Of a stretch of DNA of 64,000 bases, positions 5,633-62,943 are shown in pieces. Source of the stretch: a virus (Duplodnaviria > Caudoviricetes); the IMG/VR virus record IMGVR_UViG_3300047160_014550, positions 2,765 through 66,764 of that record. One strand, given 5' to 3'. Numbering within the stretch: position 1 is the stretch's first letter; each line of letters starts with the position of its first letter. The notes beneath the pieces were generated by a model, which saw only the letters and a program-made list of their open reading frames with translations, ran no database searches and was not told the DNA's origin. A program made the position numbers and the translations under genes.

Positions 5633-6396
5633 GCTTCAACACCTATCACCAGCAGACGACCCGTCTTTTAAGGGAAGAAAGACAGGATCTGCTCGATCCG
5701 GCCGACATCGCCGAATACATCAACATGGCTCGCGGGCAGGTGGCCGGCGAGGGCGAGTGCATCCGTGTCGACGGCACGATCTCGACCGTCGTGGGCCAGC
5801 GGGCCTACCAGTACAGCGCCATCAACGTCGGCACTCAGGCTACTTCGGGCGTGGCTGGCGTGATCCACGTCCGGCGCATCTCCTGGCAGGTCGCGCAGGG
5901 ACGAAAGTTCGTCCGGCCCAAGCCCTGGCCCTGGTTCGACCTCTACTACCTCAACCAGCCGGTCACGGCGAACGGCCCGCCCATGTACTGGTCGCAGTTC
6001 GGCCAGGGCGCGACGCCGACGGGCTCCTCGGGCGGGGGCGGAACAACCTTCGGCGGCTCGTTCTACCTCGAACCGCCGCCAGACCAAGCCTACGGTCTTT
6101 TTTGCGATTGCGTGTGCTACCCGCAGCCGCTCCAGTACAACACCGACGTCGATGCCCTGCCCTACCTGTGGTCGGACGCGGTGCCGTTCCTCGCTGCGTG
6201 GTATGCCCTCGTGGCGCTTCAGAGCCAAGCCAAGGGCGATCCGCAGGCGATGATGGCGAACTACAACCTTTTCGTGCAAAAGGCCCGCCAATACGCCAAT
6301 CCGTCGCCCAACCGGGTCATCTACGAGCAGGCGAACGACCCGGTGCAGATGGCCAAGGTCATGGTCGGAGGCGGCAAAGCCTCGCCGCATGGGTAA
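5629..6396 (+). CDS. Head-tail adaptor-like, paralog 2
   Basis: YINMARGQVAGEGECIR, WSQFGQG, YLWSDAVPFLAA, EQANDPVQMAK align with paralog 1. Confidence 0.65.
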   Translation: MSFNTYHQQTTRLLREERQDLLDPADIAEYINMARGQVAGEGECIRVDGTISTVVGQRAYQYSAINVGTQATSGVAGVIHVRRISWQVAQGRKFVRPKPWPWFDLYYLNQPVTANGPPMYWSQFGQGATPTGSSGGGGTTFGGSFYLEPPPDQAYGLFCDCVCYPQPLQYNTDVDALPYLWSDAVPFLAAWYALVALQSQAKGDPQAMMANYNLFVQKARQYANPSPNRVIYEQANDPVQMAKVMVGGGKASPHG

Positions 6397-7325
6397 TGGG
6401 CACGCTTAACGGCTACATGCAGGCGACCCAGCGGTTTCTGCGCGAGCAGAAGCAGGATTTTATCGATCCCGACGACCTGATCGGCTTTGTGAACCGTTCG
6501 CGACGCGAAACCGCGATGCGGACCAAGTGCTTGCGGGGCTTGACGCCCATCAGTGGGCAGATCGTGAGCTGGACGATCGAGAATCCCGGCTCCGGGTACT
6601 CGACAACCCCGACTTTGACGATCACGCCGCCGGATTTTCCTTCCGGCGTGCTCCCCAAGCCCAACGGCGATCAGGCGACCGCCACCGCGATCGTCACAGG
6701 GGGCAAAATCGCCTCGATTCAGAGCCAATACGGCGGCCAGGGCTATTGGCAGCCTCAGATGACCATCACCGACCCGACCGGGCACGGGGCGACGGCGGTG
6801 CCGGTCATGGCCTACATCAACCAGCTCCAGCAAGGGCAGGAGGTTTATCCGTTTTCCTCGGTCGATCTTCGTCTTTTTCCGGGTGCGGCCTCGATCTTCA
6901 CCATTCGCAGCGTATCCATTCTCTTCAGCGGCTTTCGCTACTCGTTGGCCTGCTACGATTTTTCGACCTATCAGTCATTGGTAAGACAGTGGGCACTCCA
7001 GTGGCAGTACGTGCCAGTTATATGTGCCCAATATGGACAAGGTACAGGTGGTTCTTTCTATATGTACCCTATTCCATCTCAACCATTCCAAATGGAGTGG
7101 GACTGTTTCTTTCTGCCGTCAGACCTCGTGGATGATCAGAGCTACGATCCAATTCCCGATCCCTGGTGTGACTCAATCCCTTATTTTGCGGCTCACCTCG
7201 GTTACTTATCGTTGCAGAATCTCAACGCTGCCAAATTTTACCTTGATCTCTACGACACCATGGTGGGACGGCATTCGTCCTATGCCCGACCCGGACGAGC
7301 CGTGAACCCATATGGTCGCATCTAG
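6396..7325 (+). CDS. Head-tail adaptor-like, paralog 3, with GSGY-type insertion
   Basis: ATG 6396 overlaps TAA; FVNRSRRETAMRTKCLR, CAQYGQG, PDPWCDSIPYFAA; inserted NPGSGYSTTPTLTI...GATA module. Confidence 0.65.
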   Translation: MGTLNGYMQATQRFLREQKQDFIDPDDLIGFVNRSRRETAMRTKCLRGLTPISGQIVSWTIENPGSGYSTTPTLTITPPDFPSGVLPKPNGDQATATAIVTGGKIASIQSQYGGQGYWQPQMTITDPTGHGATAVPVMAYINQLQQGQEVYPFSSVDLRLFPGAASIFTIRSVSILFSGFRYSLACYDFSTYQSLVRQWALQWQYVPVICAQYGQGTGGSFYMYPIPSQPFQMEWDCFFLPSDLVDDQSYDPIPDPWCDSIPYFAAHLGYLSLQNLNAAKFYLDLYDTMVGRHSSYARPGRAVNPYGRI

Positions 7326-7849
7326 TGGTTGTATTTAGACCATTCTGCGCCGTGAAGCTGCTGAGCAGCTTTGCAAGCAGCTGCATAGGCTTCTTCGGCC
7401 GTTTTAAAGACGCCAAGGTTATGCCGCTTGCCGTGAACTTTGACGCCGGCAATGTAGAATTGACAGGTCTTTCGGGTTACAAGCGTGACTCCTTTGTATC
7501 CTGTGGTGTTGTTTTTCTGCTTGCCTCTATTTCGATGGTTTTCGGAAGACGTGGCAGCTCGCAAATTGCACCAACGATTGTCCGTACCGTCTTCGTTGAT
7601 GTGGTCGATTTCGTATCGTGGCCACTCGCCCGTCATCAACAACCAAATGATGCGGTGGGCCATGTATTTACGACCGTTTATTCCTATTTTCATGCGATTT
7701 CCATTACGATAGCACGCAATTTGTCCGGGCTTTGTCTTTCTGCCAAATGGATTTTTCCACCGCAGAACGCCGGTTTCTGGATCGTAATTAAGAGCGTGCT
7801 TTACGCAGAGCTGCGTAAGGTCTTGTTGAGCGTTTTTGTGTCCTCGCAT
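7322..7849 (-). CDS. HNH homing endonuclease with C-terminal AP2 domain
   Basis: L.YDPETG.L.W, YMAHRIIW, IDHINEDGTDNRWCNLR, NNTTGYKGV, LGVFKTAEEA; GGAGG RBS before ATG 7849; lower GC than neighbours. Confidence 0.9.
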   Translation of the reverse strand: MRGHKNAQQDLTQLCVKHALNYDPETGVLRWKNPFGRKTKPGQIACYRNGNRMKIGINGRKYMAHRIIWLLMTGEWPRYEIDHINEDGTDNRWCNLRAATSSENHRNRGKQKNNTTGYKGVTLVTRKTCQFYIAGVKVHGKRHNLGVFKTAEEAYAAACKAAQQLHGAEWSKYNH

Positions 7850-7879
7850 GCTCGATTCCTCCCGGTAGGAGGATAGCAC

Positions 7880-9997
7880 ATGCCGGAAGCCGACGGCACT
7901 CAGGGCATCCTGCCGCCAGGGCCGAAGCCGCTCATCAGCGAGGAGTGGCAGGGCATCAACACGGCGACGACCCGGACGGGTGTCGACGAGAAGATGCTGG
8001 CGTGGTGCGAGGGCTTCTTTCCCCTCGAACCGGGAAATCTCCGCTGCCTGCCGGACCGCACGCCGACGCCGATCTTCACGACGTCGAGCGCCGCGATCGT
8101 CTTCATGGCGACCGGCAACATCAAGGCGACGCCCTACATCTTCGTCTTTTTAGCCGACGGGTCCATTCAGGTCGTCAACATCAACACACCCGGCCCCGCG
8201 CCCGCGCTCGCCGGCCCCGGCACCATCCAGAACCCCTCTCCGCAGACCGTGGGGCTCTCCCAGTGGGGCTCCCAGTACATCTTGATCGTCTCCAAGCAGA
8301 CCAACGGCTACTGGATCTGGGACGGCACGACGCTCTACAGCGCCGGCACGCTCGCGCCCGGCACGGTGCTGACCAACCAGGGCGCCGGCTACACCAGCGC
8401 GCCGACCGTGACGGCCTCGGGCGGCACCGGCTCGGGGGCGACCTTCACGGCGCAGACGACGCCGACCGGCGCCATCTCGGCCGTTTCGGTCAACAACCCC
8501 AACAATCTCTACAACGCCACCGGGCCGACACTCCAGCTCACGGGCGGGTCGGGCAGCGGTGCGCAGCTCCAGGCCAATTCGTCCTGGGTGTGGGGGCCGG
8601 GCGGCGCGCAGTTCACGACCATCCACAGCGTGACCGTGCTCAACGGCGGCACCGGGTATAGTTCCGCAAGCCCGCCCGTGGTCTCGGTCTCGAACCTCAC
8701 ACCCGTCTCGCTGGGGCAGGCCACGACCTTCACGGTGACCATCTCGGCGACCGGCACGATCTCCGGGGTGACTATGACCAACCCCGGCAGCGGCTACTCG
8801 GCGGGCGACGTCGTCACCCTGAACTTCAGCGGCGGGGGCGGGACCGGCGCGGCGGCGACCGTGTCGATCATGCCGTTCGGCGAGTCAGGGACCAGCGTCG
8901 AGACCTACTCGGGCCGGGTGTGGATCACCAACGGTCCCAACGTGAGCTTCACGGCGCCTAACTCGGTGACGGACTTTGCCCAGACCGACGGCGGCGGGAG
9001 CTTCCAGTCGTCCGACTCGTTCCTGCGCGTGGGCTACACGCGTCCCATCCAGGCCAACGGCTTCCTCTATCTCGTCGGCGACAGCTCCATCAATTACATC
9101 TCCAACGTGACGGCGTCGGTGACGCCGCCGTCGGTCAGCGTCAACACGACGTTCACCAACCAGAACGCCGATCCCGAGACGGGCTCGCCGTGGGCGCCGA
9201 CCATCGGCACCTGGGGGCAGAACATCATCTTCGCCAACATCTGGGGCGTCCACATCATCTATGGCTCGCGGGCGCAGAAGGTCTCGGAGGCGCTCGATGG
9301 CGTTTACAACACCGTCGGGTCCAACCCCGTCTTGGGGTTTCCAGGGAACTTCATTCCCTCGTCCGGGAAGCTCAACGTCTTCGGCAAGAAGGTCTGGTGT
9401 CTTTTATTGCCGGTCGTTGATCCCATTTCCAAGGGCACCGTCAACAAGCTTTTCCTCTGGAACGGCAAGATCTGGTTCACCGCGCAGCAGGGGCTGAACC
9501 TCATCTACATCGCATCCTCGGAGATTAACTCGACCTTCCTGCTGTGGGGCACCGACGGGATCAACATCTATCAGCTCTTCACCACGCCCTCGAATTTTGT
9601 TGGCAAGGTTTTGCGGACCAAGTTCTGGTCGGCCTCGGCCGCCTACATGTTGCTCAAGTCCGCCGTGCGGTTCTGGATGCTGATGGTGCCCAATACGTCG
9701 GAGGCGCCGTCTTTCACGCTCACGATCGACAACGAGACGAACTCCGCGAGCTACGTGCTGGGCACGACGGCGCCGCAGGTCATTGTCATCAACGCGGGCG
9801 GGACGACCGTGCAGGTCATCAACACGTTCGGTCAGGGCGTTATCGTGACGGCGGCGCTCGGGCAGACGGCCGTGTCGCAGCCGCTCGCGGTCGCGCAGAC
9901 AGGCACCCTACTCGGGTATACGATCAGCACGACGGCGGCGGACGTGTCCATCATCTCGACGGCCTTGCAGCCGGAAATCGTCGGATACAGGGGATAA
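7880..9997 (+). CDS. Tail nozzle / tubular protein B-like stabilisation protein with GSGY repeats
   Basis: 705 aa beta-rich protein after the adaptors; GGAGG RBS; GAGY/GTGY/GSGY repeats in the middle. Confidence 0.65.
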   Translation: MPEADGTQGILPPGPKPLISEEWQGINTATTRTGVDEKMLAWCEGFFPLEPGNLRCLPDRTPTPIFTTSSAAIVFMATGNIKATPYIFVFLADGSIQVVNINTPGPAPALAGPGTIQNPSPQTVGLSQWGSQYILIVSKQTNGYWIWDGTTLYSAGTLAPGTVLTNQGAGYTSAPTVTASGGTGSGATFTAQTTPTGAISAVSVNNPNNLYNATGPTLQLTGGSGSGAQLQANSSWVWGPGGAQFTTIHSVTVLNGGTGYSSASPPVVSVSNLTPVSLGQATTFTVTISATGTISGVTMTNPGSGYSAGDVVTLNFSGGGGTGAAATVSIMPFGESGTSVETYSGRVWITNGPNVSFTAPNSVTDFAQTDGGGSFQSSDSFLRVGYTRPIQANGFLYLVGDSSINYISNVTASVTPPSVSVNTTFTNQNADPETGSPWAPTIGTWGQNIIFANIWGVHIIYGSRAQKVSEALDGVYNTVGSNPVLGFPGNFIPSSGKLNVFGKKVWCLLLPVVDPISKGTVNKLFLWNGKIWFTAQQGLNLIYIASSEINSTFLLWGTDGINIYQLFTTPSNFVGKVLRTKFWSASAAYMLLKSAVRFWMLMVPNTSEAPSFTLTIDNETNSASYVLGTTAPQVIVINAGGTTVQVINTFGQGVIVTAALGQTAVSQPLAVAQTGTLLGYTISTTAADVSIISTALQPEIVGYRG

Positions 9998-11072: not shown

Positions 11073-11524
11073 TGACAAAACCTCTTCCGCGACCTCCTTT
11101 GCTCGAATCCCACGCCCGCCGATTCGAGATGGCCGACATGACGAGCCACCGCTGGCTCATTCCCCGGCTGATGAAGGTCAATCCGCACCTTACCATGCGC
11201 AACGCCCAGGGCTGGCTCTCCTCGATCATCAATTCGAACGAGTTCCTGTTCCTGCGGCAGGATCATTCGGCGGCCTTGGCGCAGTGTATCCGGTCTTTTA
11301 TCCTCGACCCGATCCCGGTCGTGCAGGAACGCTTCGTCTTCGCCGAAGAGGAGAAATACATCGACGAGGCGTCGGCCTTCTACGACGACTTTGGGCGCTG
11401 GGCGAAGGGCATGGGTTGCAAGAACATCCTCGTCAACGAGAACAGCGATGTTCCCATGATCCTGATACGGGACCGGCTGGGGCTCGTCATCGACGTCACC
11501 CGCTATCTGGCACGGCTGCCGTGA
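11069..11524 (+). CDS. GNAT-fold-like protein preceding the ejection genes
   Basis: Size, position before ejection proteins and V.ERFVFA...F..WAK..GC..I pattern. Confidence 0.5.
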   Translation: MMTKPLPRPPLLESHARRFEMADMTSHRWLIPRLMKVNPHLTMRNAQGWLSSIINSNEFLFLRQDHSAALAQCIRSFILDPIPVVQERFVFAEEEKYIDEASAFYDDFGRWAKGMGCKNILVNENSDVPMILIRDRLGLVIDVTRYLARLP

Positions 11525-12053: not shown

Positions 12054-13469
12054 ATGCCCGGTATTTTTGCCGGTCTTTTGGCAGGCGGCGCTGACATTCT
12101 GGGGGCCCTGTTCGGCGGTGCGGAAGCGGCGGGCGCCGCCGCAATCCCGGCCATGGCCGGCGGCGCAGCCCTTGATACCGGTGCGGCCGCGGGCGCGCTC
12201 GATCTTGGCTCGCTCCTGGCGGGCGGCGCGGCGCCGACCGTGGCTGGCGCGGATCTCACCGGCATGACCCTCTCGCCCTTCGCGACCGGCGCACTGACGA
12301 CCGGTGGCGAAGTGCTGCCCACGATCGAGGTGGCGAGCGCGGCGCCGGCATTCGCCGCAGCCGACGCCATCGCTCCCTCGGCGGTCGTGGGCGGCGACTT
12401 CGCGGCGCTCGGGCTACCGGCTGCGGCCGACGTGGCAAGCCCGCTGCCGACGCTCGGAGCCAGCATGGGCGGCGGTGCGGCGCCCGGCGTGACCTCGGCA
12501 CTGGCGTCGCCGACTGCGACAGGAGTCACGGGCGGGTTGTCGGTAGCAGCGCCCGGCGTGGGAGCTGGAGCAATGACCCCGGCGGGCGTTGCCTCGACCG
12601 GTATCGGGGCGCCGTTTGGGGGCGTGCTGGGGGAGAATGCCGCAAACGTGGGTGCGGCGGCGGCCGATCCGTGGCTGACCAACGTGTCCAATCCTGCCTT
12701 GAGCCTTGCCTCGACGACCAGCCCGGTAGCGGCTTCGCCTGGTCAAACCGCGATCAGCGGCGCCCTGGCCGGTGCTCCTCCATCCAACCTGGGCAACGTC
12801 GGCACGGGCATTCTGGCAACGGGAGGCGGAACGGGAGGAGGTATCACGGCTGGCACGGGCCTGGGAGGTGCTACCGACGCGATGGGCGGTGCAGGCGGCA
12901 CCAATCTCCTCGACACCCTCATGGGGGCCGGCAAGAGTCTCATCGGCGGCGCCAACCCGCTCATGCTCGGGCTCGGCGCCGCCGGGCTCGGCTACAACAT
13001 CTACACGGGCCAGAAGGCGCTTCAGTCGCAGCAATCCATGATGGATCTAGCCAACCAGCAGCGTGCTCTGGGAAATCAGATGCAGGGCTATCTTAGTTCC
13101 GGCACGCTGCCGCCCGGCCTGCAGGCGGGCCTCGACAAGGCGTCGGCATCCGCCAAAGCGCAGATCATCCAGGGCTACGCCAACCGGGGCCAGTCGACCG
13201 ACCCGTCGCTGAACAGCGCGCTCGCGGCCGACCTGCAGGGGGTCGACATTCAGAAGAATTACGACATGGTTAACCTCGAAACGCAGCTTTTCAACCTGGG
13301 CCAGCAGGGCATCTCGCTGTCCAACACCGATTTCAACAACCTAATGAATCTGGAGCAGAAACAGTCGGAGAACGTCGGCGCCGCGCTCTCCAACTTCGCC
13401 AGGGCGGCCGGCGGTGGCACGGTTGTACCCAAAACGGCCGGTGGCATGACGGTCTCCTTCACCGGATAA
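12054..13469 (+). CDS. Gly/Ala-rich DNA ejection (pilot) protein
   Basis: Hydrophobic Gly/Ala-rich N-terminal half and Gln-rich helical C-terminus; first of three large internal-protein genes. Confidence 0.6.
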   Translation: MPGIFAGLLAGGADILGALFGGAEAAGAAAIPAMAGGAALDTGAAAGALDLGSLLAGGAAPTVAGADLTGMTLSPFATGALTTGGEVLPTIEVASAAPAFAAADAIAPSAVVGGDFAALGLPAAADVASPLPTLGASMGGGAAPGVTSALASPTATGVTGGLSVAAPGVGAGAMTPAGVASTGIGAPFGGVLGENAANVGAAAADPWLTNVSNPALSLASTTSPVAASPGQTAISGALAGAPPSNLGNVGTGILATGGGTGGGITAGTGLGGATDAMGGAGGTNLLDTLMGAGKSLIGGANPLMLGLGAAGLGYNIYTGQKALQSQQSMMDLANQQRALGNQMQGYLSSGTLPPGLQAGLDKASASAKAQIIQGYANRGQSTDPSLNSALAADLQGVDIQKNYDMVNLETQLFNLGQQGISLSNTDFNNLMNLEQKQSENVGAALSNFARAAGGGTVVPKTAGGMTVSFTG

Positions 13470-13475
13470 AAGACC

Positions 13476-34369: not shown

Positions 34370-34372
34370 GCC

Positions 34373-41951: not shown

Positions 41952-41955
41952 CTTT

Positions 41956-47467: not shown

Positions 47468-47620
47468 TCTTATAAGAGACTGGTCTTTTATTTATTGTTG
47501 ATCTTCTTATAAGACAATATTTATTGTTGATCATCAACAAATATCTGATCAACAAATATTTGATCTTGTTTGATGAGCAAATATTTGTTGGTCATCAACA
47601 AATATTTGATGAGCAAATAA
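47468..47620. repeat. AT-rich array of palindromes
   Basis: TCTTATAAGA x2 (47468, 47505); CAAATATTTG x3 (47553, 47578, 47599) plus a variant at 47538; TTGTTGA-tca-TCAACAA. Confidence 0.8.
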
Positions 47621-47782
47621 AGACCAAAAAAGACCGCGCGGTCGCCTCGACGCGGGCGCGCCTGCGTCGGCCCGGCCTGGGTGGGAGTCGTGGGCACCCC
47701 AACTCGTGGCCCCCCAGGGGTTTCCCTCACGCTGCAAGCTTGCTTGCTTGCGCCCCATGCCACGCGGCAGTAGAAGCTGCCC

Positions 47783-51110: not shown

Positions 51111-52503
51111 CCGCGCTGCCGCCGACAGCCTGATGGACAAGGCCGAGACGGTCATGAAGACCGATCTCTCGCAGGCGACCCACGCCTACCACATGTTCGA
51201 CAACGCCTGCCTGACCGACCCGACCTACTGGCGGTCGTACTACCGGCAGGCCAACAACAACTCCGACCTCAAGAAGGCCCACGCCGCCATCGCCGGTTAC
51301 CGCGTCGCCCTGTCGAACGGCCCGCCCGGCATCGAGCGCGCCAACGTCCTCTCCAACCTGTCCTGGCAGCTCATGCAGGTCGGCCACATTCAAGAGGCGG
51401 TCGACTGCGCCCAGCTCGCGGTCGAAATCAACCCGGAACTCGTTCACGCCTGGATCAACCTTTCCTGCGCCTATGGTATCCTGCGCAAGACCCGCTCGTC
51501 GGTCGCGGCTGCCGAACGCGCCAAGGCCCTCAAGGGCGACGACCCGATCGTGCAGATGGCGGCGACGTTCGCCTATTTCTTCGACCGCCAGTGGAGCAAA
51601 GCCTATGCCGAGTTCGAGTGCCGCTATGCTTATAAGCTGCATCACTTCCTTCACTACCCTTATCCCGCTTGGCGGGGCGAGCCCGACAAATGCCTGCTTC
51701 TCGCGTTCGATCAAGGTCTGGGCGATACAATCAGCTACGCGCGATTTCTGCCCATGGCAGCGGCACGATGCCGTCACGTGTACGTCTGCATACAACCTGA
51801 ACTACAACGATGGTTCACCACGGCTTTTCTACACATACCCAACATCACCATCGTGCCCGGCCCCATTAATTTCCCAGGCGACGCCGAGTACTGGTCGACC
51901 TACATGAGCCTGCCCTACGCCCTGGGGCTCGACAACGACACCATCGAGACGACGCCGCATGTCAAACCTCCGGCTTCGACTGTTCTCTTGGCGGGGGTTC
52001 CCTGGACCAGCGTTGCGTGGAAGGTTCCCGACCGCAAGCTTCATGTGGGCGTGAGCTGGGCCGGCTCGACCGCGAACGAGATCAACCATCATCGTTCGTT
52101 TCCGGTTCAGCATCTGCTCGAACTCTACCGGGTCGAGGGCATCCAGCTTTATTCCTTCCAGGTGGACGAGCGGAAGAACGACCTCTATGAGATCGGCGCC
52201 GCCGCCCTCATAAAAGACATGTCTCCCTACATAAGAGACGTGTCGGACACCCTGGGCCTGCTCAGACATTTCGACCTCGTCATCACCTGCGAGTCTGCGC
52301 TCGGTCACATCGCGGCCTGCGCCGGCATTAAAACTTGGGTTCCCTATTCGTTCTTAGGTCGCGACCATCGGTTGGGCACCGACGGCTCGAACCCGCTCTG
52401 GTACAAGGACACGCATAGAACGTTCAACCAAGGCTCGGATCGCAACTGGGAGCCGGTGTTTGCCGAGATCGCCAAGGCTCTTCGCAAGCGGGTACCAAAA
52501 TAA
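51103..52503 (+). CDS. TPR-repeat plus GT-B (family 9-like) glycosyltransferase
   Basis: TPR-like N-terminus; W.GE...LL...DQGLGDTI.YARF, VGVSWAGS, DLVITCESA.GH.A. Confidence 0.85.
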   Translation: MGDRAAADSLMDKAETVMKTDLSQATHAYHMFDNACLTDPTYWRSYYRQANNNSDLKKAHAAIAGYRVALSNGPPGIERANVLSNLSWQLMQVGHIQEAVDCAQLAVEINPELVHAWINLSCAYGILRKTRSSVAAAERAKALKGDDPIVQMAATFAYFFDRQWSKAYAEFECRYAYKLHHFLHYPYPAWRGEPDKCLLLAFDQGLGDTISYARFLPMAAARCRHVYVCIQPELQRWFTTAFLHIPNITIVPGPINFPGDAEYWSTYMSLPYALGLDNDTIETTPHVKPPASTVLLAGVPWTSVAWKVPDRKLHVGVSWAGSTANEINHHRSFPVQHLLELYRVEGIQLYSFQVDERKNDLYEIGAAALIKDMSPYIRDVSDTLGLLRHFDLVITCESALGHIAACAGIKTWVPYSFLGRDHRLGTDGSNPLWYKDTHRTFNQGSDRNWEPVFAEIAKALRKRVPK

Positions 52504-52754
52504 TGCTGAAGATGTATGCCAGCGGCGTGAAGGACGGCAAGCCGGTAAAGCTTGTCATACTTGGCCTGTCTTTTAAGAACTTGGAAAAACTCAAGGAAGG
52601 ACGTCCCATAAAAATCATGGGCGATACTATAGGTCTCACCAGCGATGTGGAGTTTCTTATTTTCTCTGGCGAGACCGAGCAATCGATGCACAAGGAAATG
52701 CAACAGTTCGTCGGACCGGATACAGAAGTCTATATTGATCCGAGGCTGAAATGA
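52503..52754 (+). CDS. Hypothetical protein
   Basis: LVILGLS..NL.KL..GRPI pattern; coupled start/stop. Confidence 0.6.
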   Translation: MLKMYASGVKDGKPVKLVILGLSFKNLEKLKEGRPIKIMGDTIGLTSDVEFLIFSGETEQSMHKEMQQFVGPDTEVYIDPRLK

Positions 52755-53515
52755 CCATCCACCAGATTGCCGTAGGCGACCTCCCCGGCTTCAAGATGGA
52801 CCTCGACCCGTCGTTCGCCCAGGACCGCACGCTCATCCACATGTTCAAGATGGGCATCCTCCCCGAGCCGGAAGTCATCGGCGCCATGATGCGGATCGTC
52901 CGCGAGAAAGACGTCGTGATCGACGGCGGCGCCTCGAACGGCTTCTTCACTTGTCTCCTGGCGAGTCTCGTCGGCGACGGCGGCAAGGTCATGTCCTACG
53001 AGCCGTCGCGGCAGGCGTTTAAACGTTTAAAAGACAACGTGGAAATAAATAATTTTGAACAGGTATTGCTGTCTCCGCAGATACTGTGGTCGGACGAGAC
53101 AACGGTCGATTTCACGGAGACGCTTGATACGGGACTCAGTCACGTTGCAAACACAGCCGCTGCTCCTTCGACGTATACGGCGAGTGCAACCAAGCTCAAC
53201 CGCCCTGCCCGGCTGATCAAGCTCGACATCGAGGGTTCCGAGTACGAGGCGCTCACCTCGCGCAATTACGACGGCACGCCCTACATCGTCTGCGAATTGA
53301 ACGAGATGGCCCTGCATCGTGCCGGCCGGTCGCAGGACGCGTTGCGGCAGCTCATGCGCGATCGTGGTTACCAGATGTGGCAGCTCTTCCCGGACGGAAC
53401 CCTGCCGCGCCTCGTCCCTTATCCGATCGCGCTGCATCCCAAGGCCATGAACGTCAATGTGCTGTTCGCGGCGATCAACGACATGGCCATGGTCTGGAAG
53501 GACGTCGATGGCTAG
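52751..53515 (+). CDS. FkbM-family methyltransferase
   Basis: VIDGGASNG.FT, V.SYEPS, LIKLDIEGSE. Confidence 0.85.
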   Translation: MTIHQIAVGDLPGFKMDLDPSFAQDRTLIHMFKMGILPEPEVIGAMMRIVREKDVVIDGGASNGFFTCLLASLVGDGGKVMSYEPSRQAFKRLKDNVEINNFEQVLLSPQILWSDETTVDFTETLDTGLSHVANTAAAPSTYTASATKLNRPARLIKLDIEGSEYEALTSRNYDGTPYIVCELNEMALHRAGRSQDALRQLMRDRGYQMWQLFPDGTLPRLVPYPIALHPKAMNVNVLFAAINDMAMVWKDVDG

Positions 53516-53822
53516 AGAGACCGACGAGCACTTCTTCACGTTCCATCCCGACCGGCAGATCCGCATCCGCCTGCCGGAGGGCAACGAATGCCAGAACGAG
53601 TTCCGCTCGCTCGGCGACCACAACGCCGCGCGCCGCCGGATTCTCGTCTACCGGGTGCCCAAGGACAACCCGTACTACGACCCGAATAAAAGACCGTTGT
53701 TGAAAATTCCCTTCTTGCTTTTCTCGGAGGAAAGTGTAGAGGATACTGATGAGATTCTTCTTCCCATCCTCCATGAGATCATGATGGACGCTGCCAAAAA
53801 TGCCCGCAAAACTCGACCTTAG
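53508..53822 (+). CDS. Hypothetical protein
   Basis: Coupled to upstream stop; typical codon usage. Confidence 0.55.
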   Translation: MARETDEHFFTFHPDRQIRIRLPEGNECQNEFRSLGDHNAARRRILVYRVPKDNPYYDPNKRPLLKIPFLLFSEESVEDTDEILLPILHEIMMDAAKNARKTRP

Positions 53823-54399
53823 TAATCGGCAATTCGGCAGATTGTGGGTTACCGCTAAAGTAGAAAGTCGTTGGCGCGGTGATAGAAAGCGGCGTTTTTG
53901 GCTGTGCCAGTGTACTTGCGGGCGTGAGATATGGGTTGATTGTTCTAATTTGGTGATAGGCAATTCTACAAGTTGTAATATCTGCTGCAAAGGCACACAT
54001 AGATTAAGCTCGACGCTGACGTATAGAGTATGGGCTAACATGCTGAGCCGCTGCCGCGATTCCAATAACGACGGTTATTACTTGTACGGAGGTCGAGGCA
54101 TCAAGGTGTGCGATCGATGGATCAACTTTGAAAATTTTCACGCTGATATGGGCAATAAGCCCATAGGGCGTTCCATAGATCGTATTGATAGTGACGGTGA
54201 CTATGAACCGGCTAATTGTCGTTGGGCTACTCCGAAAGAGCAGGCAGCTACTCGGCGGTCGACAAGGCTGTCCTTTGAAAAAGCCAAGCAGATCAGGCAG
54301 TTATATAAGGACGGCATGATAAAAGCGAACATTGCGAGGCAGTTTGGTGTTTCGTTCGCTGCCATCTGCCGCGTGCTGGATGGCAGTAGATGGGTATGA
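53800..54399 (+). CDS. HNH homing-endonuclease-like protein with C-terminal HTH
   Basis: FGRL.V, WLCQC.CG, Y..W..M..RC, YGGRGI.VC.RW..F..F..DMG, SIDRID.DGDYEP.NCRWAT; low GC. Confidence 0.85.
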   Translation: MPAKLDLSNRQFGRLWVTAKVESRWRGDRKRRFWLCQCTCGREIWVDCSNLVIGNSTSCNICCKGTHRLSSTLTYRVWANMLSRCRDSNNDGYYLYGGRGIKVCDRWINFENFHADMGNKPIGRSIDRIDSDGDYEPANCRWATPKEQAATRRSTRLSFEKAKQIRQLYKDGMIKANIARQFGVSFAAICRVLDGSRWV

Positions 54400-55267: not shown

Positions 55268-57184
55268 ATGGCGGGCTGGTCCAAATCCAAGCGCACCCAG
55301 TACGAGAACGCCTTCCGCGTCTTCCTCTCGCACTGCTTCATCAACTCCAAGGAAAAGGGGTTCATGTGCCTGGGCAAGGACATGTACACCTCCCAGGAAC
55401 GTTTCATCACCTTCGTCTTCGACTGCCTCGAACGCGACATCCACAACATCTTCGTCCTGAAATCCCGTCAGCTCGGCATCACCACGATCGCCCGCGCGCT
55501 CACCACGTTCTTCCTCGGAATGTTTCGCGGCCTGCCGGGCTGCCTCGTCTTCGACTCGGCCGAGAACAAGAACACGGCCCGCGACGAACTCCTGACGATG
55601 CTCGCCGACCTCCCGGTCCAGCTTCGCTTCCCCCCGGTGAAAAAAGACAACCGCGAGGGCCTCACCCTCGCCAACGACGCCCGCATCCTGTTTAAGCACG
55701 CAGGCGTTAAAAGATCGAAAAGCACGGGGACGCTGGGGCGCTCGGTGGGTCTTGCCTTCGCCCACGTCTCGGAGATCTGCTCGTTCGACTCATCGTCCGC
55801 CGAGTCCTTGATCTCGTTCAGGAAATCTCTGGCGCAGACCAACCCTGACCGGCTTTACATCTGGGAGTCGACCGCGCGCGGCTACGTCGGGCTCTGGCAC
55901 GGCATGTGGCGCGAGGCGCTCGACGACCCCGAGCATTGCGGCTCCCTCTTCGTCGGCTGGTGGTCGCGGAACGACCAGCGCATCTCCCGCACCTCACCCG
56001 ATTGGCGGCTCTATGGCGAGATGGAGCCGACGCTCCAAGAGGCTGAACAGATCCGCCTCGTCAAGGAACAGTACGACTTCGAGGTCACCCGCGAGCAGCT
56101 CGCGTGGTATCGGCGGCAGATCGACCCCTCGGCCCGGTCGCAGGGCGACACTGACGCCGGGTTCGAGGCCGACCCGCTCAAGATGCAGGAAGACCCCTGG
56201 ACTGCCGACGAAGCGTTCCAGCAGACCGGTTCCGTCTTTTTTCTCAACCAGAAGCTCAACGAGCAGACCCAGCAGAACGTCAGCAAGGATTTCGAGGGTT
56301 ATACCTACATTTGCGGCGTCGATTTCCTCCATACGCAGGTGTTCAAATCCCCCAACACCCGCATGCTGGAGCTGAAGGTCTGGGAGCCCCCCAGGCAGAA
56401 CGCCACCTACGTGATCGGCGTCGACCCGGCTTACGGGTCGAACGAAAAGAACGATCACTCGTGCATTCAGGTGCTTCGCTGCTGGGCCGATGGGGTGGAT
56501 CAGGTGGCGGAATATGATTCGCCCCTCATCGCCACCCACCAGCTCGCCTGGGTCATCGCCAGCCTGCTCGGCTGGTACGGTGGTCCGCCCCAGGCCGACG
56601 TACGATATATCCTCGAACTCAACGGGCCGGGCACGGCCGTCTTTAATGAATTGAACTCGCTGCGCCGCCAAGTAGAGAATGTCCACCGTGCGCCGCAGGT
56701 AGACGAGAAGGCGCTGGGCAACATCTTTCGGAACGTCAAGACGTACATTTATTCGCGGGCTGACAGCCTCGGTCCCGGTCATAACTTTCACTTTAAGACT
56801 CAGTTGCAGACCAAGATCACCTTGATGGAACGCCTGCGGGACTTCGTCCACACGGGCATCCTGCACGTGCGCTCGATCGACGCCATCGAGGACATGAAGG
56901 GTATCCGCCGCGACGGCGATTCGATAGGGGCGCCGGACGGCGTCCACGACGACCGCGTGGTCGCGCTGGGGCTGGGCTGCGAGTACTGGGATACCCGGAT
57001 ACGCCCCGGCCTGCTCAACATGAACCGGACCCGCGCGGCCGACGCCGCACGCGAGACGTCGAACCTCGCCGACCGTTACCGCCTGCTTAACAATGACATG
57101 ATGACCCAGTTCTTCAAGTCGAAGACCCACGAGCGCGTCATGCTCAAGCGGGCCGAGCTGCGCCGGCAATGGAGAGGTCGATGA
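55268..57184 (+). CDS. terL: Terminase large subunit
   Basis: LKSRQLGITT Walker A, HVSE Walker B, YIWESTA, VIGVDPAYG, HDDRV nuclease motifs. Confidence 0.92.
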   Translation: MAGWSKSKRTQYENAFRVFLSHCFINSKEKGFMCLGKDMYTSQERFITFVFDCLERDIHNIFVLKSRQLGITTIARALTTFFLGMFRGLPGCLVFDSAENKNTARDELLTMLADLPVQLRFPPVKKDNREGLTLANDARILFKHAGVKRSKSTGTLGRSVGLAFAHVSEICSFDSSSAESLISFRKSLAQTNPDRLYIWESTARGYVGLWHGMWREALDDPEHCGSLFVGWWSRNDQRISRTSPDWRLYGEMEPTLQEAEQIRLVKEQYDFEVTREQLAWYRRQIDPSARSQGDTDAGFEADPLKMQEDPWTADEAFQQTGSVFFLNQKLNEQTQQNVSKDFEGYTYICGVDFLHTQVFKSPNTRMLELKVWEPPRQNATYVIGVDPAYGSNEKNDHSCIQVLRCWADGVDQVAEYDSPLIATHQLAWVIASLLGWYGGPPQADVRYILELNGPGTAVFNELNSLRRQVENVHRAPQVDEKALGNIFRNVKTYIYSRADSLGPGHNFHFKTQLQTKITLMERLRDFVHTGILHVRSIDAIEDMKGIRRDGDSIGAPDGVHDDRVVALGLGCEYWDTRIRPGLLNMNRTRAADAARETSNLADRYRLLNNDMMTQFFKSKTHERVMLKRAELRRQWRGR

Positions 57185-57450: not shown

Positions 57451-57944
57451 TGCGCTTCAAGGTGCGCTGCTCGGCCTGTCAGGAAAAGTTCTCGTCCACC
57501 ATTTGGCCGCCCAAGGCATGCCCCAACTGCGGCGTGACCAACGACGATCTTGACGATAACGACGAGATCTGCATGCCGTCGATTCGCTCGATGCGGATGG
57601 CCACGACCGACAAGGTCTACCGGGACATGGAGCGCGCCTCGGAAGAGCGCGTGCATAAGGCGGCCGAGATGGCCGGCGTGCCGGCCTCGGAGATGGCGGA
57701 CCTGAAGATCACCAACCTCAACGACCGGCGCGATGCGGAGATTGCCGCCATGCCGGTCAAGAACGAGGTGTCGCAGGCGCTCGAACAGAAAGGTCCATGG
57801 GGCTTTCAGGCGAACGCCTCGGCGTTCACCGGCTCGGTGGCCTCGGGCGCGGTCGTCGTCGGCGGCAAGCCGACCGGGCAGTTCGTCGAGCCGCGTAAGG
57901 GCATGCGGACGCTAAACCTCATTAAAGACGGGCACCAGTCATGA
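57450..57944 (+). CDS. Zn-ribbon protein
   Basis: RCSACQ...CPNCG; coupled start/stop. Confidence 0.65.
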   Translation: MRFKVRCSACQEKFSSTIWPPKACPNCGVTNDDLDDNDEICMPSIRSMRMATTDKVYRDMERASEERVHKAAEMAGVPASEMADLKITNLNDRRDAEIAAMPVKNEVSQALEQKGPWGFQANASAFTGSVASGAVVVGGKPTGQFVEPRKGMRTLNLIKDGHQS

Positions 57945-59680
57945 TCCCTGACATCCCGACCGACAAGATCAAGCTGACCAAGTTCATCCTCGACCTCGTC
58001 GAGACCTGCCGCGCCTCGATCGGTTTGCGGTCGGCCTACTACCGCATGCTGCACGGTATCGCCGAGACCGGGCGCTACGACGGCACGAAGTCTCTCGTCA
58101 ACATGATGTATGCGCACCTGACGCGCACGGCTGCTATGCTGTTCTCGCCCGTCGAGCTGGAGTTCAAGTGCGCGTTCGCGCGCCCTGTCCCGCCCGACGT
58201 GCAGAAGAAGGGCCATGCCTTTGCGCATCAGGTGACGGAACTCTGGGACAATAACAACATCGACATGGAGTTCGGCCGGGGCGTATTTGAGGCGCTCAAA
58301 TACGGCGCTTGTTTCCTCAAGCAATGGCCGCAGATGGAAGGCGAGATTGGCAAGGAGTACCCGACCTATCATTCGAAACTGGTGATGCCCTGGCAGTTCG
58401 GCGTCTACCGCGAGGACGAGAACAAGCTGGAAAATCAGGAGGTCTTGTGCGAGACGTCGACCTTGTCCATGCCGGAGGTCTGGTATCGCATTCACAAGTT
58501 CTCCGATGCCGAGACCCTCTTCAAGCGGATCAAGACCCACGCCCGCAAGGGAAACTCCGACTACGAGCCGTCGTCTTTTTTCCATCAGGTGCTCAGCACC
58601 AACCAGCTCAACACGACCGGGCAGGCGGGCCTCGTGCGTCCCGGCGGCATCGTCAACCTTCAGAACGATCCCGTCACGGCCATCATGGGACCGGTGCTCA
58701 ATGTCGACGTCGTGCAGATGCACGAGATATGGGTGAAAGCGGACGAGAACCGCTACGTCACGCTTCAGTTGATCGAGCCGGACATCCTCATCAGCAAGTT
58801 CAAGCACGACAACCTGCTGATCAGTAGCGAGACCGGCAATGGCAACATCCACCCCTATACCCTCATTCAGCCCAATGAGGTGTCGAGCTGGATCTGGGGC
58901 CGCTCCGAACTCGTGGACATCGTCGAGCCGCAGCAGCTCCTCTCGACGTGGATGGACGACGCCAAGCGTCTCCTGGGGCTGCAGATCGATCGCTTCCTGG
59001 CGATCATCGGTGAGGCGGGATTATCGGATGAGGTCTACGGGCAAGCGCGGCTCGCCGGCTACATGAACATCTCCTCGCCGACGACCAAGATCGAAGACTT
59101 GACCCCGGACATGCCGGAGCAGCTTCTGCCCATGATCAAGTTCATCATCGAGACCATCAACACCTTGGGCGGCTTCCCGCCCATCCTGCAGGGCCAGGGC
59201 GAGGCCGGCGTGCGCGCGGGCGTGCATGCCGAGACCCTGGTGAAGACCGGGTCGCCGACCCTGCGCGACCGCGCGCTCTTGGTCGAGCGCCAGTGCGCGT
59301 CGGCGGCCGACAAGACCGGCACGATCATGGAGGCGAAGGAGGAGCAGTTCTACTGGTCCGACGGCGACACCGTCGACCAGATCAACAAGACGCTGTTTCT
59401 GATCTCGCAGCTTCCGCCCTGGTGGAAGATACAGGTCGACAGCCACAAGTCGTCGCCGATCTTCGCCAACGAGTCAGGGCAGCTCATCTTCGCGGGCGCG
59501 AAACTCGGCTGGGTCGATGGCGAGTACGGGCTCGACAACATGCCCTTCCCGAACAAGGAAATGGCTCAGCAGCGGCTGCGCGCGAAGGAGAAGCAGCAGG
59601 CGGCCCTGATGCAGGAACTCTTGAAGCGTGACCCGGAGGCGCTCGAAAAGATCATGGCCAAGAAGGGCGGGCACCACTAG
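57941..59680 (+). CDS. Portal protein
   Basis: 579 aa between terL and scaffold/capsid; GRSEL..I...Q..L, helical, GRGVFEAL.YG. Confidence 0.8.
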   Translation: MIPDIPTDKIKLTKFILDLVETCRASIGLRSAYYRMLHGIAETGRYDGTKSLVNMMYAHLTRTAAMLFSPVELEFKCAFARPVPPDVQKKGHAFAHQVTELWDNNNIDMEFGRGVFEALKYGACFLKQWPQMEGEIGKEYPTYHSKLVMPWQFGVYREDENKLENQEVLCETSTLSMPEVWYRIHKFSDAETLFKRIKTHARKGNSDYEPSSFFHQVLSTNQLNTTGQAGLVRPGGIVNLQNDPVTAIMGPVLNVDVVQMHEIWVKADENRYVTLQLIEPDILISKFKHDNLLISSETGNGNIHPYTLIQPNEVSSWIWGRSELVDIVEPQQLLSTWMDDAKRLLGLQIDRFLAIIGEAGLSDEVYGQARLAGYMNISSPTTKIEDLTPDMPEQLLPMIKFIIETINTLGGFPPILQGQGEAGVRAGVHAETLVKTGSPTLRDRALLVERQCASAADKTGTIMEAKEEQFYWSDGDTVDQINKTLFLISQLPPWWKIQVDSHKSSPIFANESGQLIFAGAKLGWVDGEYGLDNMPFPNKEMAQQRLRAKEKQQAALMQELLKRDPEALEKIMAKKGGHH

Positions 59681-60027
59681 CCGATGCGCGGCCCGACGAT
59701 TGGCATCCGGCCGCCCATGATGGCCTGCTGCTTGGCGCGCTGCGCAGCCTGCTGCAGCTCGGGGTCGCTGCCCATTTCCTTCTGGGTGATGGCGGTGATT
59801 CGCAACTGGCGAAGCCCGTTCTCGACGTGGACGCGCTGCGAGCGTTCGAGGTCTTCGACCATGACGGCGTGAATGTCGCCGTAGATTGTGACGCGTTGAC
59901 CGTAGTCGTCTTCGGTCATGCCTCCTTCACGGAGATGCCCTCGGGCTTGCTCGGCGCTTTCTTCGCTGTTGAACAGCAGTGTCCACATGGACGCCGCCGG
60001 CCCAAACATGACAGTCAAGCCGTACAT
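59677..60027 (-). CDS. Hypothetical protein
   Basis: Coherent ORF converging on the portal stop. Confidence 0.55.
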   Translation of the reverse strand: MYGLTVMFGPAASMWTLLFNSEESAEQARGHLREGGMTEDDYGQRVTIYGDIHAVMVEDLERSQRVHVENGLRQLRITAITQKEMGSDPELQQAAQRAKQQAIMGGRMPIVGPRIG

Positions 60028-60293
60028 CGTTCGCGCCTCGCCATCATCTGCAGCCGCTCCTTGGTGAGATCGAGGTAGTCGAACGGCCCGCGCGAATCGA
60101 GCCAGATCTTCAGCTCGCCGCGATGGATGCGCATCACGCGGCGGTCGCCGCTGACGTTATATCGAAAAAGATGGACGCGCGGTCCCAGACCCTCGTGGAT
60201 CAGGTTGTAGAGGGTCTTGTAGTCGATCCCGAGCAGGCGTGACACCTGCTTGATGGTCAGGAACTCGGCGGCCGAGTCTGCTGAGTCTGCCAT
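60015..60293 (-). CDS. Excisionase/AlpA-like HTH protein
   Basis: FLTIKQVSRLLGIDYKTLYNLIHEG.GP...RI...L..WL. Confidence 0.75.
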   Translation of the reverse strand: MADSADSAAEFLTIKQVSRLLGIDYKTLYNLIHEGLGPRVHLFRYNVSGDRRVMRIHRGELKIWLDSRGPFDYLDLTKERLQMMARRERCTA

Positions 60294-60422
60294 GCCTTTC
60301 GTCTTTAATTCGAAACGAGATGCCAAGTCAATACCGAATCGCCCTCGATATACAACAGCTTAGTCTTTAACGCCCACACTATGATGACGTCCGCAAGTGC
60401 AACGCTGTGATAGGAGGTTCTC

Positions 60423-60467
60423 ATGGTGACGCGTTACAGGCGTGGCCGTCGGCGCGGCCGACGGTAA
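60423..60467 (+). CDS. 14-aa Arg-rich peptide MVTRYRRGRRRGRR
   Basis: AGGAGG RBS 5 nt before ATG; first ORF of the head operon. Confidence 0.6.
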   Translation: MVTRYRRGRRRGRR

Positions 60468-60497
60468 GCAAAGACGGCCGGTTATCCGGCGGCCAAG

Positions 60498-61097: not shown

Positions 61098-61292
61098 ATG
61101 GCCAATTTCGACATCTTTCGCAACAACGCCAAGTCCATTCCGACCAGCGACGGGCAGATCGTGCGCGTCGACATGGAGGAGCTGGAGATCGGCGGGCGCA
61201 AGTCGCATCTGCCGTCGTCCTCAAAATCCGAATCGATGGCGCTCTCGCACGTGCCGAATGCTGGCACGAATGTCGGGACCGGAGTGAAGTAA
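61098..61292 (+). CDS. Small hypothetical protein
   Basis: GAGGAG RBS. Confidence 0.6.
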   Translation: MANFDIFRNNAKSIPTSDGQIVRVDMEELEIGGRKSHLPSSSKSESMALSHVPNAGTNVGTGVK

Positions 61293-61886
61293 ATGGCGGG
61301 CAAGATCCTCGAAGTCACCGAGGAAGCCTGGAACCGCGCGGTGCAGATCGAGGGCGCGCTCGCCAAGATCGTCAACAACTCGCAGGCCAAGCTGCTGCTT
61401 CAAAAGGCCCACAAGCTCGCCGATCCGACCGCGATTACCCCCGAACTCGACCGCGAGAATGCCGAGAACGATCGCGTCGCGGGCATCAAGAAGGAGTTCG
61501 ACGAGTACAAGGCCGAGCAGGCGAAGCTTGCCGCCGAAGCCGAGCAGCAGCGCAAGATCGCCGAGCTGAGCCAGAAGATCGAGACCGGTCTCGCCGGCCT
61601 GAAAAGCCGGCATCATCTCACCGACGAGGGCGTCGCCGCCGTCCGCAAGATCATGGACGAAGAAGGCATCCTCAATCCCGAGACTGCTTACGCGGCCCTC
61701 GAAAAGCGGCATCCGCCGCAGGATCTGCTCACGCCCCGTGGCAACACGTCGTGGAATTTCATGGCCATCGACGACAAGGACGCGGGCGCGGACTACGCCA
61801 AGAAGCTCATCGACACCAAGGGTAAGAACGATCTCGTGCTTGATCGCGAGGTTTTCGCTGCGCTCAACGACGTGCGGGCGCGCTGA
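61293..61886 (+). CDS. Capsid scaffolding protein
   Basis: Charged coiled coil immediately before the major capsid gene. Confidence 0.65.
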   Translation: MAGKILEVTEEAWNRAVQIEGALAKIVNNSQAKLLLQKAHKLADPTAITPELDRENAENDRVAGIKKEFDEYKAEQAKLAAEAEQQRKIAELSQKIETGLAGLKSRHHLTDEGVAAVRKIMDEEGILNPETAYAALEKRHPPQDLLTPRGNTSWNFMAIDDKDAGADYAKKLIDTKGKNDLVLDREVFAALNDVRAR

Positions 61887-61902
61887 CTGAGGAGATGCTC
61901 AC

Positions 61903-62943
61903 GTGCCGCTTCCCGGTATAGGCGTCGCGCCGCCTGCAGGCGCATTGTATTCAGAGCTGACGGCAGTTACCCGTCGAGCATTTGTCCCCCGTCTTTTTGT
62001 GCAGATTTATTTCGCCTCGCCTAGCCTGTTCTACATGACCGGCAACGCGCAGCGCGCGGCCGGCGGGCTCAACCAAGTCACCATCCCGGCCCAGGGCCAG
62101 TCGATGGTGCAAGGACAGTTCACCAACTATGGGGGCGGGTTCAACTCGCCGGTCATCACGCCCGGCATTCAGAACCTGCAGTTCAATCTAGCCTACTGGG
62201 TCGTGCCTGTACCCCTACCGTTTGGAGAGTCAGTCCTCCAGGCGACCGACCGTGAGATTTCCGTTCTTAAGGCGCGGATGAACGACGTTTACGCGGTCAC
62301 GCGACAGAACATGGCCCGTCTTTTATATACCAACAATGCCGCCAATCCGACCTATCCAGACTCCTTCCAGAACGCCTTCGACGCCGGCACCAACTTCCCG
62401 ACCTACGGGGGTGTTAACCGCAACGTCGCCGGCAACTCGGCGTTCCAGGGGCAGTACATCAACCTCAACTCAGGGACGTTCTCGCAGGGCACCGCCGGCT
62501 TCACGCGGGCCGGCATGTCGAACCTGCTCTCCTACGTGACCGACAACGCGGGCGGCGAGGCGCCGACCTTCGTTGTGATGTCGCCCGGTGACTACGCCAC
62601 CTTGAACAACACCTTCCAGGCTATTGAAACGCAGTTCGTCAATCCGGGCGGCTCGTATTCGATGGATACCGAGGTCCGATCGTCCTTCCCGAATCTTGTC
62701 ATTGCGGGAATCCCGATCTTCGCCGACCACTTCTGTCCGAAGGGGAACGTATTCGGCGTCAACATAAAATACACCAGCTTCTACATGAGCGAGGACGCCG
62801 CCTTCGACTTCAGCGGGTTCTATTCTCTTGTTCCGTTGGGACAGATCGGCCAGCAGGGCGTCGTCGTGTGCGGTTACGACGTGCTCACCGCCAAGCCGTC
62901 CAGCGGATTCTGGGGCTACAACCTGCAGGGCGCGGCCTTCTGA
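61903..62943 (+). CDS. Major capsid protein
   Basis: 346 aa; AGGAG RBS; L...TRR..VP.L..Q.....P, YGG..R, GIPI..D..CP pattern of HK97-fold capsids. Confidence 0.85.
   Translation: MPLPGIGVAPPAGALYSELTAVTRRAFVPRLFVQIYFASPSLFYMTGNAQRAAGGLNQVTIPAQGQSMVQGQFTNYGGGFNSPVITPGIQNLQFNLAYWVVPVPLPFGESVLQATDREISVLKARMNDVYAVTRQNMARLLYTNNAANPTYPDSFQNAFDAGTNFPTYGGVNRNVAGNSAFQGQYINLNSGTFSQGTAGFTRAGMSNLLSYVTDNAGGEAPTFVVMSPGDYATLNNTFQAIETQFVNPGGSYSMDTEVRSSFPNLVIAGIPIFADHFCPKGNVFGVNIKYTSFYMSEDAAFDFSGFYSLVPLGQIGQQGVVVCGYDVLTAKPSSGFWGYNLQGAAF

Follow-up and report, generated by a model that had tools for sequence, protein, structure and literature searches.

Why is a GC-rich phage genome dotted with copies of a single AT-rich octamer, on both strands and mostly within genes? 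This question is raised by a 64,000-nt stretch of DNA (the window, to which all coordinates of exact words refer) comprising bases 2765-66764 of IMG/VR record IMGVR_UViG_3300047160_014550, a complete single-contig virus record of 66,764 bp whose source is an uncultured ~67-kb soil phage. An initial annotation, made from the letters of the window, drew attention to the octamer GTCTTTTA, read as TAAAAGAC on the other strand, and suggested that its copies are dispersed sites to which a protein of the phage or of its host binds. The present analysis confirms the observation: the copies depart strongly from chance, and selection acts on them at the level of the DNA. The best explanation is that a protein of this phage lineage recognises the word as a signal, and that selection on the DNA keeps it genome-wide.

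All 24 positions listed in the initial annotation are exact GTCTTTTA or TAAAAGAC sites, and its count of at least 24 copies is true, although two sites were overlooked, at 5113 (+) and 19815 (-). The window contains 26 exact sites, 16 on the + strand and 10 on the - strand, and the whole 66,764-bp genome contains 27. Dinucleotide shuffles of the window give an expectation of 0.52 octamers (sd 0.73, maximum 3), and a third-order Markov model gives 1.5. The enrichment is 20-50-fold. A stricter null model shuffled synonymous codons within each gene, preserving protein and codon usage and leaving intergenic sites untouched. This procedure leaves 5.9 +/- 0.9 octamers (maximum 10), of which five are the untouched intergenic sites; 22 genic octamers are thus observed against ~1 after shuffling. 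The initial annotation had staked its interpretation on the outcome of such a codon- and amino-acid-preserving comparison, and the enrichment persists under it. A codon or protein artefact is thereby ruled out.

The octamer is only part of a wider word, Y-S-GTCTTT-W-W-T (Y, pyrimidine; S, C or G; W, A or T). Positions 1-6 tolerate no single-base change, T or A is accepted at positions 7 and 8, and T is preferred at position 9. Upstream, position -2 is a pyrimidine in 86 of the 107 core sites (80-86% of sites) and position -1 is C or G in 80 of the 107 (75%). The GTCTTT core itself is present in 107 copies against 36-43 expected, which corresponds to about one per kb. The GTCTTTT and GTCTTTA variants reported earlier are real, with 59 copies against 11-15 expected and 21 against 5-9, respectively; GTCTTTTT is found 23 times against 3-7 expected, and the genome holds 10 copies of GTCTTTAA. 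Outside the motif the flanks are unrelated from site to site, so the word does not represent a repeat family or a mobile element.

Comparison with a close relative, the contig L001, reveals how the sites come and go. L001 shares 11.4 kb with the phage at 86-90% nucleotide identity, its terminase is 95% identical, and no sequence besides these two was found to carry the word (in L001, 17 GTCTTT cores against 4.5 expected). In this comparison 11 core sites are common, 4 are private to the phage and 6 are private to L001. The private sites differ between the two genomes by clustered, mostly synonymous substitutions with no insertions or deletions, often leaving the protein entirely unchanged and introducing rare codons. 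Examples are AAG AAG to AAA AAA (Lys-Lys), TCC CTC to TCT TTA (Ser-Leu) and AAG CGG to AAA AGA (Lys-Arg); at other private sites the amino acids do change. Conservation of word sites is 62-77%, whereas all other words of the same length reach 35-45% (P 0.005-0.09), an approximately twofold difference. Because private sites arise by clustered synonymous changes, and because the word is better conserved than other words, it is both maintained and actively created by selection. The earlier proposal that selection acts on the DNA is borne out by four lines of evidence: the codon-preserving null, the occurrence of sites in all frames and on both strands, the synonymous rare-codon changes at private sites and the ~2-fold conservation.

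The trait does not extend far beyond these two genomes. Terminase homologues delimit a very large family of uncultured phages with genomes of 60-66 kb. Five complete relatives, with terminases 52-55% identical, contain 0-2 octamers each, and a search of these five for any enriched word of their own found none (best k-mer log-likelihood score 10-17, against 46-52 in the phage). Some 60 further family loci, each 9 kb or longer, are likewise not enriched in the word; a 3-kb contig with 63% identity in the large terminase subunit is uninformative on the presence of the word. A family-wide trait is ruled out by the five complete relatives and the ~60 loci, and the word is private to one lineage of a large ~65-kb soil phage family.

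These comparisons bear on the account in which no protein reads the word at all, the enrichment being a side effect of codon usage, amino-acid content, a repeat or mutational bias. Lys-Asp codon pairs (AAA GAC) can slightly raise the counts of some T-rich words, as at the unrelated locus L116, where GTCTTTG enrichment was traced to a weak codon-pair effect and set aside. Such an account does not explain why a shuffle that preserves protein and codons keeps only ~1 of 22 genic sites, why gained and lost sites show no insertions or deletions and changes of more than one mutation type, or why relatives of like composition lack the word. The by-product reading is very improbable, being essentially refuted by the codon shuffle, the pattern of site changes and the word-free relatives. 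A repeat or mobile element is ruled out by the unrelated flanks together with the absence of insertions or deletions at gained and lost sites.

The exact words are spread over most of the window. On the + strand they lie at 5113-5120 (an GTCTTTTA copy within a gene, on its sense strand, and one of the two missed earlier), 5663-5670, 9399-9406, 11293-11300, 15689-15696, 24357-24364, 30572-30579, 32080-32087, 37899-37906, 38590-38597, 42414-42421, 42857-42864, 47483-47490, 48631-48638, 52568-52575 and 62318-62325, the last of which is conserved in L001. On the - strand they lie at 13467-13474 (overlapping a stop codon, 1 nt ahead of the next start), 19815-19822 (the second missed site), 25945-25952, 28425-28432, 39113-39120, 39479-39486 (intergenic by the rough gene calls), 42114-42121, 52211-52218, 53028-53035 and 53687-53694. 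Sites on both strands and mostly inside genes had been described initially, and this holds, with 22 of the 27 octamers in the genome being genic. For the broader GTCTTTWW set of 69 sites, 31 are sense, 25 antisense and 13 intergenic, so that 81% lie inside genes, and all three reading frames are used. The strand split is 38 + to 31 -, and the mean gap per strand is 1.8 and 2.2 kb. The coefficient of variation of the gaps, 0.87-0.99, is the same as for random placement, both overall and per strand, and the spacing is therefore Poisson-like. A two-replichore strand polarity of the word was tested for every origin position and none was found. The spacing and strand statistics that had been suggested as a check thus describe Poisson-like spacing on nearly equal strands with no replichore polarity. 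Random orientation relative to genes rules out an RNA-level or promoter/terminator signal, and there are no Rfam or tRNA matches.

Word density is ~1 per kb in every module of the genome. It peaks at 2.3 per kb in the early block (36.9-43.8 kb) and is low, 0.6 per kb, in a tail-fibre-like block; both blocks lack homologues in the relatives. The tail-fibre-like block occupies window positions 1-4842, extends upstream of the window start and consists of large structural genes with no homologues in the five relatives. Its low density is consistent with a recently acquired block into which few copies of the word have so far been written.

Most of the intergenic hairpins ahead of small leftward genes in the early block carry the word, or else a GTCT/T-rich fragment, in their loops. 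The exact word at 42114-42121 lies within the loop and stem of one such hairpin. At 42414-42421 the GTC closes an 11-bp stem and TTTTATTT forms the loop. The intergenic copy at 42857-42864 adjoins the palindrome GTTTAAAC, and an inverted pair of GTCTTTTT words at 41101-41121 makes up a small intergenic palindrome. The same region, at 41380-42870 and 43780-43850, holds about six copies of a ~85-bp unit upstream of the small leftward early genes, each composed of CGCAAGCNCATG, a hairpin with a variable loop, the small palindrome TTCGAGCGAATGGTCGCTCAT and an extended Shine-Dalgarno sequence, AAGGGGAGAC. By analogy, these units look like repeated promoter/stem-loop cassettes of the kind seen in T4-type early regions. 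The palindrome GTTTAAAC is found at 42867, 50453 and 53017 (~0.3 expected), with two of the three copies directly beside an GTCTTTTA word. No SprT-like gene was found in the genome, and an SprT-linked GTTTAAAC system is ruled out, there being no such gene and just 3 GTTTAAAC sites.

A second concentration of structure is an AT-rich palindrome/iteron cluster at 47.44-47.64 kb, which carries inverted copies of the word on both flanks: the exact word at 47483-47490 on the left and the variant words GTCTTTAT and GTCTTTTT at 47617-47634 (- strand) on the right. The region 47440-47640 contains two copies of CTTATAAG, three of CAAATATTTG and several iterons of the TGATCAACAA type. It is situated where leftward genes give way to rightward ones and terminates 2.4 kb of DNA (45.1-47.5 kb) in which coding signal is sparse; it is a candidate origin or master operator.

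Which protein reads the word? The general class put forward initially, sites for a phage or host protein, is right, although no reader has been tied to the word. Of the specific proteins named, the DGQHR protein is encoded in no real frame, while an XRE-type helix-turn-helix (HTH) protein (34121-34405) and an HTH_17 protein (60015-60293) exist. Overall the initial interpretation is partly supported, in that its general form stands and its specific candidates do not. Two candidate readers remain, the primase and the HTH_17 protein, both of which are conserved in the family and fast-evolving.

We tentatively favour the phage's sole primase as the reader, with the word as its template word. The primase gene (34615-36951, + strand) encodes Prim-Pol (7e-39), PriCT_2 (1e-13) and DUF5906 (4e-17; DUF5906/VapE helicase) Pfam domains, and a search of the genome for a Toprim or DnaG zinc-ribbon primase found none. 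According to this proposal, GTCTTT(T/A)(A/T) would be the template word that the sole primase, an enzyme combining a Prim-Pol and a PriCT_2 helix-bundle domain with a D5/NrS-1-type helicase, needs in order to begin a primer. The PriCT_2 helix bundle would bind the word on the single-stranded template and leave it uncopied, and the primer would begin one or two bases 5' of the word, opposite the preferred -2 pyrimidine. Copies would have been written into both strands at about one per 2 kb per strand, on the scale of Okazaki fragments; they would have had to be written in because a GC-rich genome holds such an AT-rich word fewer than two times by chance. The choice of the primase and the position of the priming start are inferences, possible rather than probable. 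The enrichment, the DNA-level selection, the independence of strand and frame, the restriction to one lineage and the domain make-up of the primase are, in contrast, shown by the analysis.

There is precedent for primases with template words. The primase of pRN1, ORF904, requires a cryptic template word, GTG (PMC2034472), and the NrS-1 polymerase uses an 8-nt word, TTTGGTTA, or GTG(A/G), starting at the first upstream base or skipping one (PMC8718748). In both enzymes the helix-bundle domain is what requires the word, and the primer begins directly 5' of it. Like these two enzymes, the phage primase combines a Prim-Pol domain, a PriCT helix bundle and a superfamily 3 (SF3)/D5-type helicase, and like their words, which reach 8 nt, the phage word is short and asymmetric. 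Unlike them, the phage word is enriched genome-wide, for which no precedent is published for such words in the literature searched, and recognition by the phage primase is a candidate only. The additional information at -2 (pyrimidine) and -1 (C/G) would fit a primase start site. The near-equal strands, the independence from transcription and the density of ~1 per kb in every module fit a genome-wide need such as priming; sites at the spacing of Okazaki fragments are found on both strands (38 + and 31 - GTCTTTWW). The inverted copies that flank the origin-like cluster at 47.44-47.64 kb also speak for the primase, as do the synonymous rare-codon changes that create sites and their roughly twofold conservation.

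Several findings weigh against the primase. The five complete relatives carry orthologous primases (32-45% identity, the range given by G001-G004) with no enriched word; the divergence of the phage primase does not exceed that of the relatives' enzymes, and an alignment of the primase helix bundle shows nothing striking. The sites are Poisson-like in spacing, overall and per strand, rather than evened out, and no origin position yields a lagging-strand polarity. The interchange of T and A at positions 7 and 8 looks more like minor-groove reading of a duplex than base reading of a single strand. In a separate comparison, a grid of TGTGGTTA was looked for in three cultured phages with related primases and was not found; Xanthomonas phage Mallos has a modest GC-rich enrichment that could not be told apart from codon effects.

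Duplex recognition of this kind leads to the alternative in which the words are binding sites of a small phage protein, with HTH_17 leading and other orphan early proteins also considered. Such a protein would occupy ~70-100 sites, whether to organise the phage chromosome, to mark it or to regulate it. This is likewise conceivable but short of probable, and we place the two readings nearly level. An asymmetric site of ~11 bp with a base-specific Y-S-GTC half and a T/A tract would suit a monomeric winged helix whose wing enters the minor groove. The HTH_17 protein (60015-60293, - strand; 92 aa) is an excisionase-type winged helix, and two GTCTTTAA copies 62 bp apart (60301-60370, + strand) precede its start by 7 and 69 nt, L001 having both in identical form. 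This lineage's HTH_17 is strongly diverged, its wing being longer and its C terminus extended, and among 5.8 billion proteins only the L001 orthologue is detectable. The highest density of the word (2.3 per kb) falls in the lineage-private early block, in intergenic hairpin loops, and there is an established case of a monomeric repressor whose asymmetric sites are scattered through a phage genome (PMC9283540). Other findings do not agree with this reading. The HTH_17 gene is family-wide (53 loci), and the relatives have no genome-wide word. AAAGAC occurs upstream of the gene in 3 of 48 relatives against ~2 expected, so that a family-wide AAAGAC operator is unsupported, and repeat geometry upstream of the gene in relatives is near chance. 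In addition, 81% of the sites are genic and their orientation is independent of transcription, a role in lysogenic immunity is unlikely since no integrase, resolvase or ParB was found, and there is no evident need of a virulent phage for ~100 sites inside genes.

The HTH_17 gene is part of a two-gene antisense cassette inside the head module (59677-60293, - strand), which encodes a ~115-aa protein and the excisionase-type HTH_17 and is syntenic in 53 family loci. The 116-aa gene (59677-60027) is missing from L001. Just upstream of the head genes, window positions 60424-60468 (+ strand) hold an arginine-rich open reading frame of 14 codons with a strong TAGGAGG ribosome site, a possible leader peptide.

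The dispersed asymmetric word recalls the stoperators of Cluster A mycobacteriophages, read by proteins such as L5 gp71 and Bxb1 gp69 (PMC9283540, PMC6550527). These are asymmetric words of ~13 bp, scattered in tens of copies through the genome and recognised by an HTH protein that acts as a monomer, with a specificity that evolves lineage by lineage. By this comparison, HTH_17 and the XRE HTH (34121-34405) are candidate monomeric word binders. Stoperators, however, are mostly intergenic, oriented with transcription and found in temperate phages, whereas here 81% of the sites are genic, orientation is random (31 sense, 25 antisense, 13 intergenic), and no lysogeny genes, whether for integration or partition, were found.

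In its genomic signature the word comes closest to the DNA uptake sequences (DUS) and uptake signal sequences (USS) of bacteria. Those of Neisseriaceae and Pasteurellaceae are similarly present at ~1 per kb, on both strands, in all frames, within genes and with Poisson-like spacing. They also turn over between close relatives and are less dense in recently acquired DNA, for which the tail-fibre block would be the counterpart here. The likeness is one of pattern, as DUS/USS are found in competent bacteria, where biased uptake drives them, whereas the phage word is in a virus and the sampled candidate host groups are not enriched.

Could the word instead be directed at the host? In a Chi-like version, a possibility raised initially, it would make a host nuclease of the RecBCD/AddAB type stop degrading DNA and turn to repair, sparing linear phage DNA entered from either end; a site for some other host protein belongs to the same class of explanation. 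Chi sites are asymmetric 5-8-mers that act at the DNA level, are over-represented, and are enriched in some phages that lack nuclease inhibitors (PMC3784561). Permuted genome ends would require both orientations, and a host switch would explain the restriction to one lineage. Contigs of the phage family have been binned with metagenome-assembled genomes (MAGs) of Acidobacteriota, Verrucomicrobia, Acetobacteraceae and Hyphomicrobium, which is weak evidence of the hosts. Accordingly, the octamer was counted against a reversed-word control in 5 family-contig MAGs, 401 Acidobacteriota and 201 Alphaproteobacteria (607 genomes). None of these 607 genomes, sampled from the two likeliest host groups, is clearly enriched. 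The octamer is at or below the reversed control in all sampled Acidobacteriota and reaches at most ~2.3-fold in a few small alphaproteobacterial genomes. Four of the 607 negative rows are unpublished genomes (G034, G059, G162 and G450), and no claim is based on them. The phage enrichment of 20-50-fold far exceeds the Chi enrichment reported in phages. A Chi word is dictated by the nuclease of the host, whose chromosome carries it in excess and with a strand skew; no host of that kind turned up among the sampled genomes. Chi words known so far are rich in G, whereas the phage word is AT-rich and more enriched. A host-directed signal is unlikely, and the Chi-like version finds no support in the sampled genomes.

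A third protein, a site-specific phage nicking endonuclease, has also been considered. Here the words would be its cut sites and would give rise to localized single-strand interruptions in the virion DNA as in T5, phiKMV and tf, the candidate enzyme being the HNH-HTH protein (53800-54399, + strand; phrog_374, E 1e-52). This gene adjoins the packaging genes and is patchy in the relatives, with a weak match in G003 only, and the motifs at which other phages are nicked are likewise short and asymmetric. Nevertheless, 0 of 79 phage loci with HNH homologues (34-56% identity) are GTCTTT-enriched, the protein resembles an ordinary mobile homing endonuclease, known nicked phages have a handful of sites rather than a selected grid of one per kb, and there is no obvious reason to select for extra nicks. 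Nicking is even less probable than a host signal, and the HNH-HTH protein is probably a homing endonuclease. Its HTH is C-terminal, and its gene is free-standing, ~0.9 kb upstream of the terminase and just ahead of two small genes. The remaining likelihood is assigned to some other reader that has not been thought of.

Genes private to the lineage, defined by tblastn against the five relatives, offered a further handle on the reader through gene association. Phages with homologues of the DUF932 protein show no enrichment of the word, nor do those with homologues of a 394-aa orphan, and the top "words" in the DUF932-homologue loci proved to be tandem coding repeats. At three of these loci, in unrelated phages (L114, 11860-12340; L120, 5710-6030; L149, 11290-11660), a gene beside the DUF932 gene contains long 9- or 18-bp tandem coding repeats of the TGCTCGGAC type, and an unrelated DUF932-bearing phage (L143, 3815-3950) has an 8-bp tandem array of GCTTAGCG. 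Dispersed asymmetric octamers of other sequence occur in L110, a 64-kb contig from a Ramlibacter MAG (TGTCCCGA, 11 copies against 1.2 expected), and in L186 (CGGTAAGG, 13 against 0.8). Since L110 and L186 carry octamers of their own, private words appear to recur sporadically in unrelated phages. Searches of the literature found no published discussion of the octamer as a motif and no paper on genome-wide primase words in phages.

The remainder of the genome is that of a tailed phage. IMG/VR classes the record as complete with terminal repeats, and because the L001 contig aligns over the two ends of the record, the map is circular or permuted. The G+C content is 60.3%, slightly below the ~62% estimated by eye in the initial annotation. 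Rough gene calls give ~75 genes and 87.5% coding, and identities were assigned by family scans over these calls. They include a GH25 lysin (24188-24964), an SNF2 helicase with an intein (27622-30057, - strand; Intein_splicing match at approximately residues 144-377), a PD-(D/E)XK nuclease (30823-31506), a family A DNA polymerase (31679-33556), DUF932, DUF7192 and AAA_5 proteins (38.4-45.2 kb), the large terminase (55268-57184) and the major capsid protein (61999-62943). A likely portal (57941-59680) is assigned from position and size, with no family match. The SNF2 helicase orthologues in four relatives are ~250 aa shorter than the intein-bearing copy, and inteins are also present in some terminase homologues of the phage family (P0078, P0087). 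The tRNA and Rfam searches of the genome gave no match. Searches for Phage_integrase, Resolvase and ParB_N gave no match at E<=1, and the phage is probably virulent because these genes were not found.

What the word means for this phage depends on its reader. If the primase reads it, the lineage would possess a private priming grid, in which a Prim-Pol starts only at an 8-11-nt word written ~100 times into the phage's own genes. This is a possibility that we hold tentatively. Primers for replication would thereby be directed to the DNA of the phage rather than to that of its host, an undescribed viral replication organisation in which enzyme specificity and genome spelling co-evolve; primase specificity could shape the spelling of a genome, and a sequence-specific priming enzyme would be in hand. 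If a small HTH protein reads it, a virulent phage would mark its chromosome throughout in a new way. With either reader, keeping the word inside genes costs the phage rare codons and a number of altered amino acids, which points to strong, chromosome-wide selection on a protein-DNA interaction, and its turnover between the phage and L001 provides a clean system for the co-evolution of a genome-wide signal and its reader.

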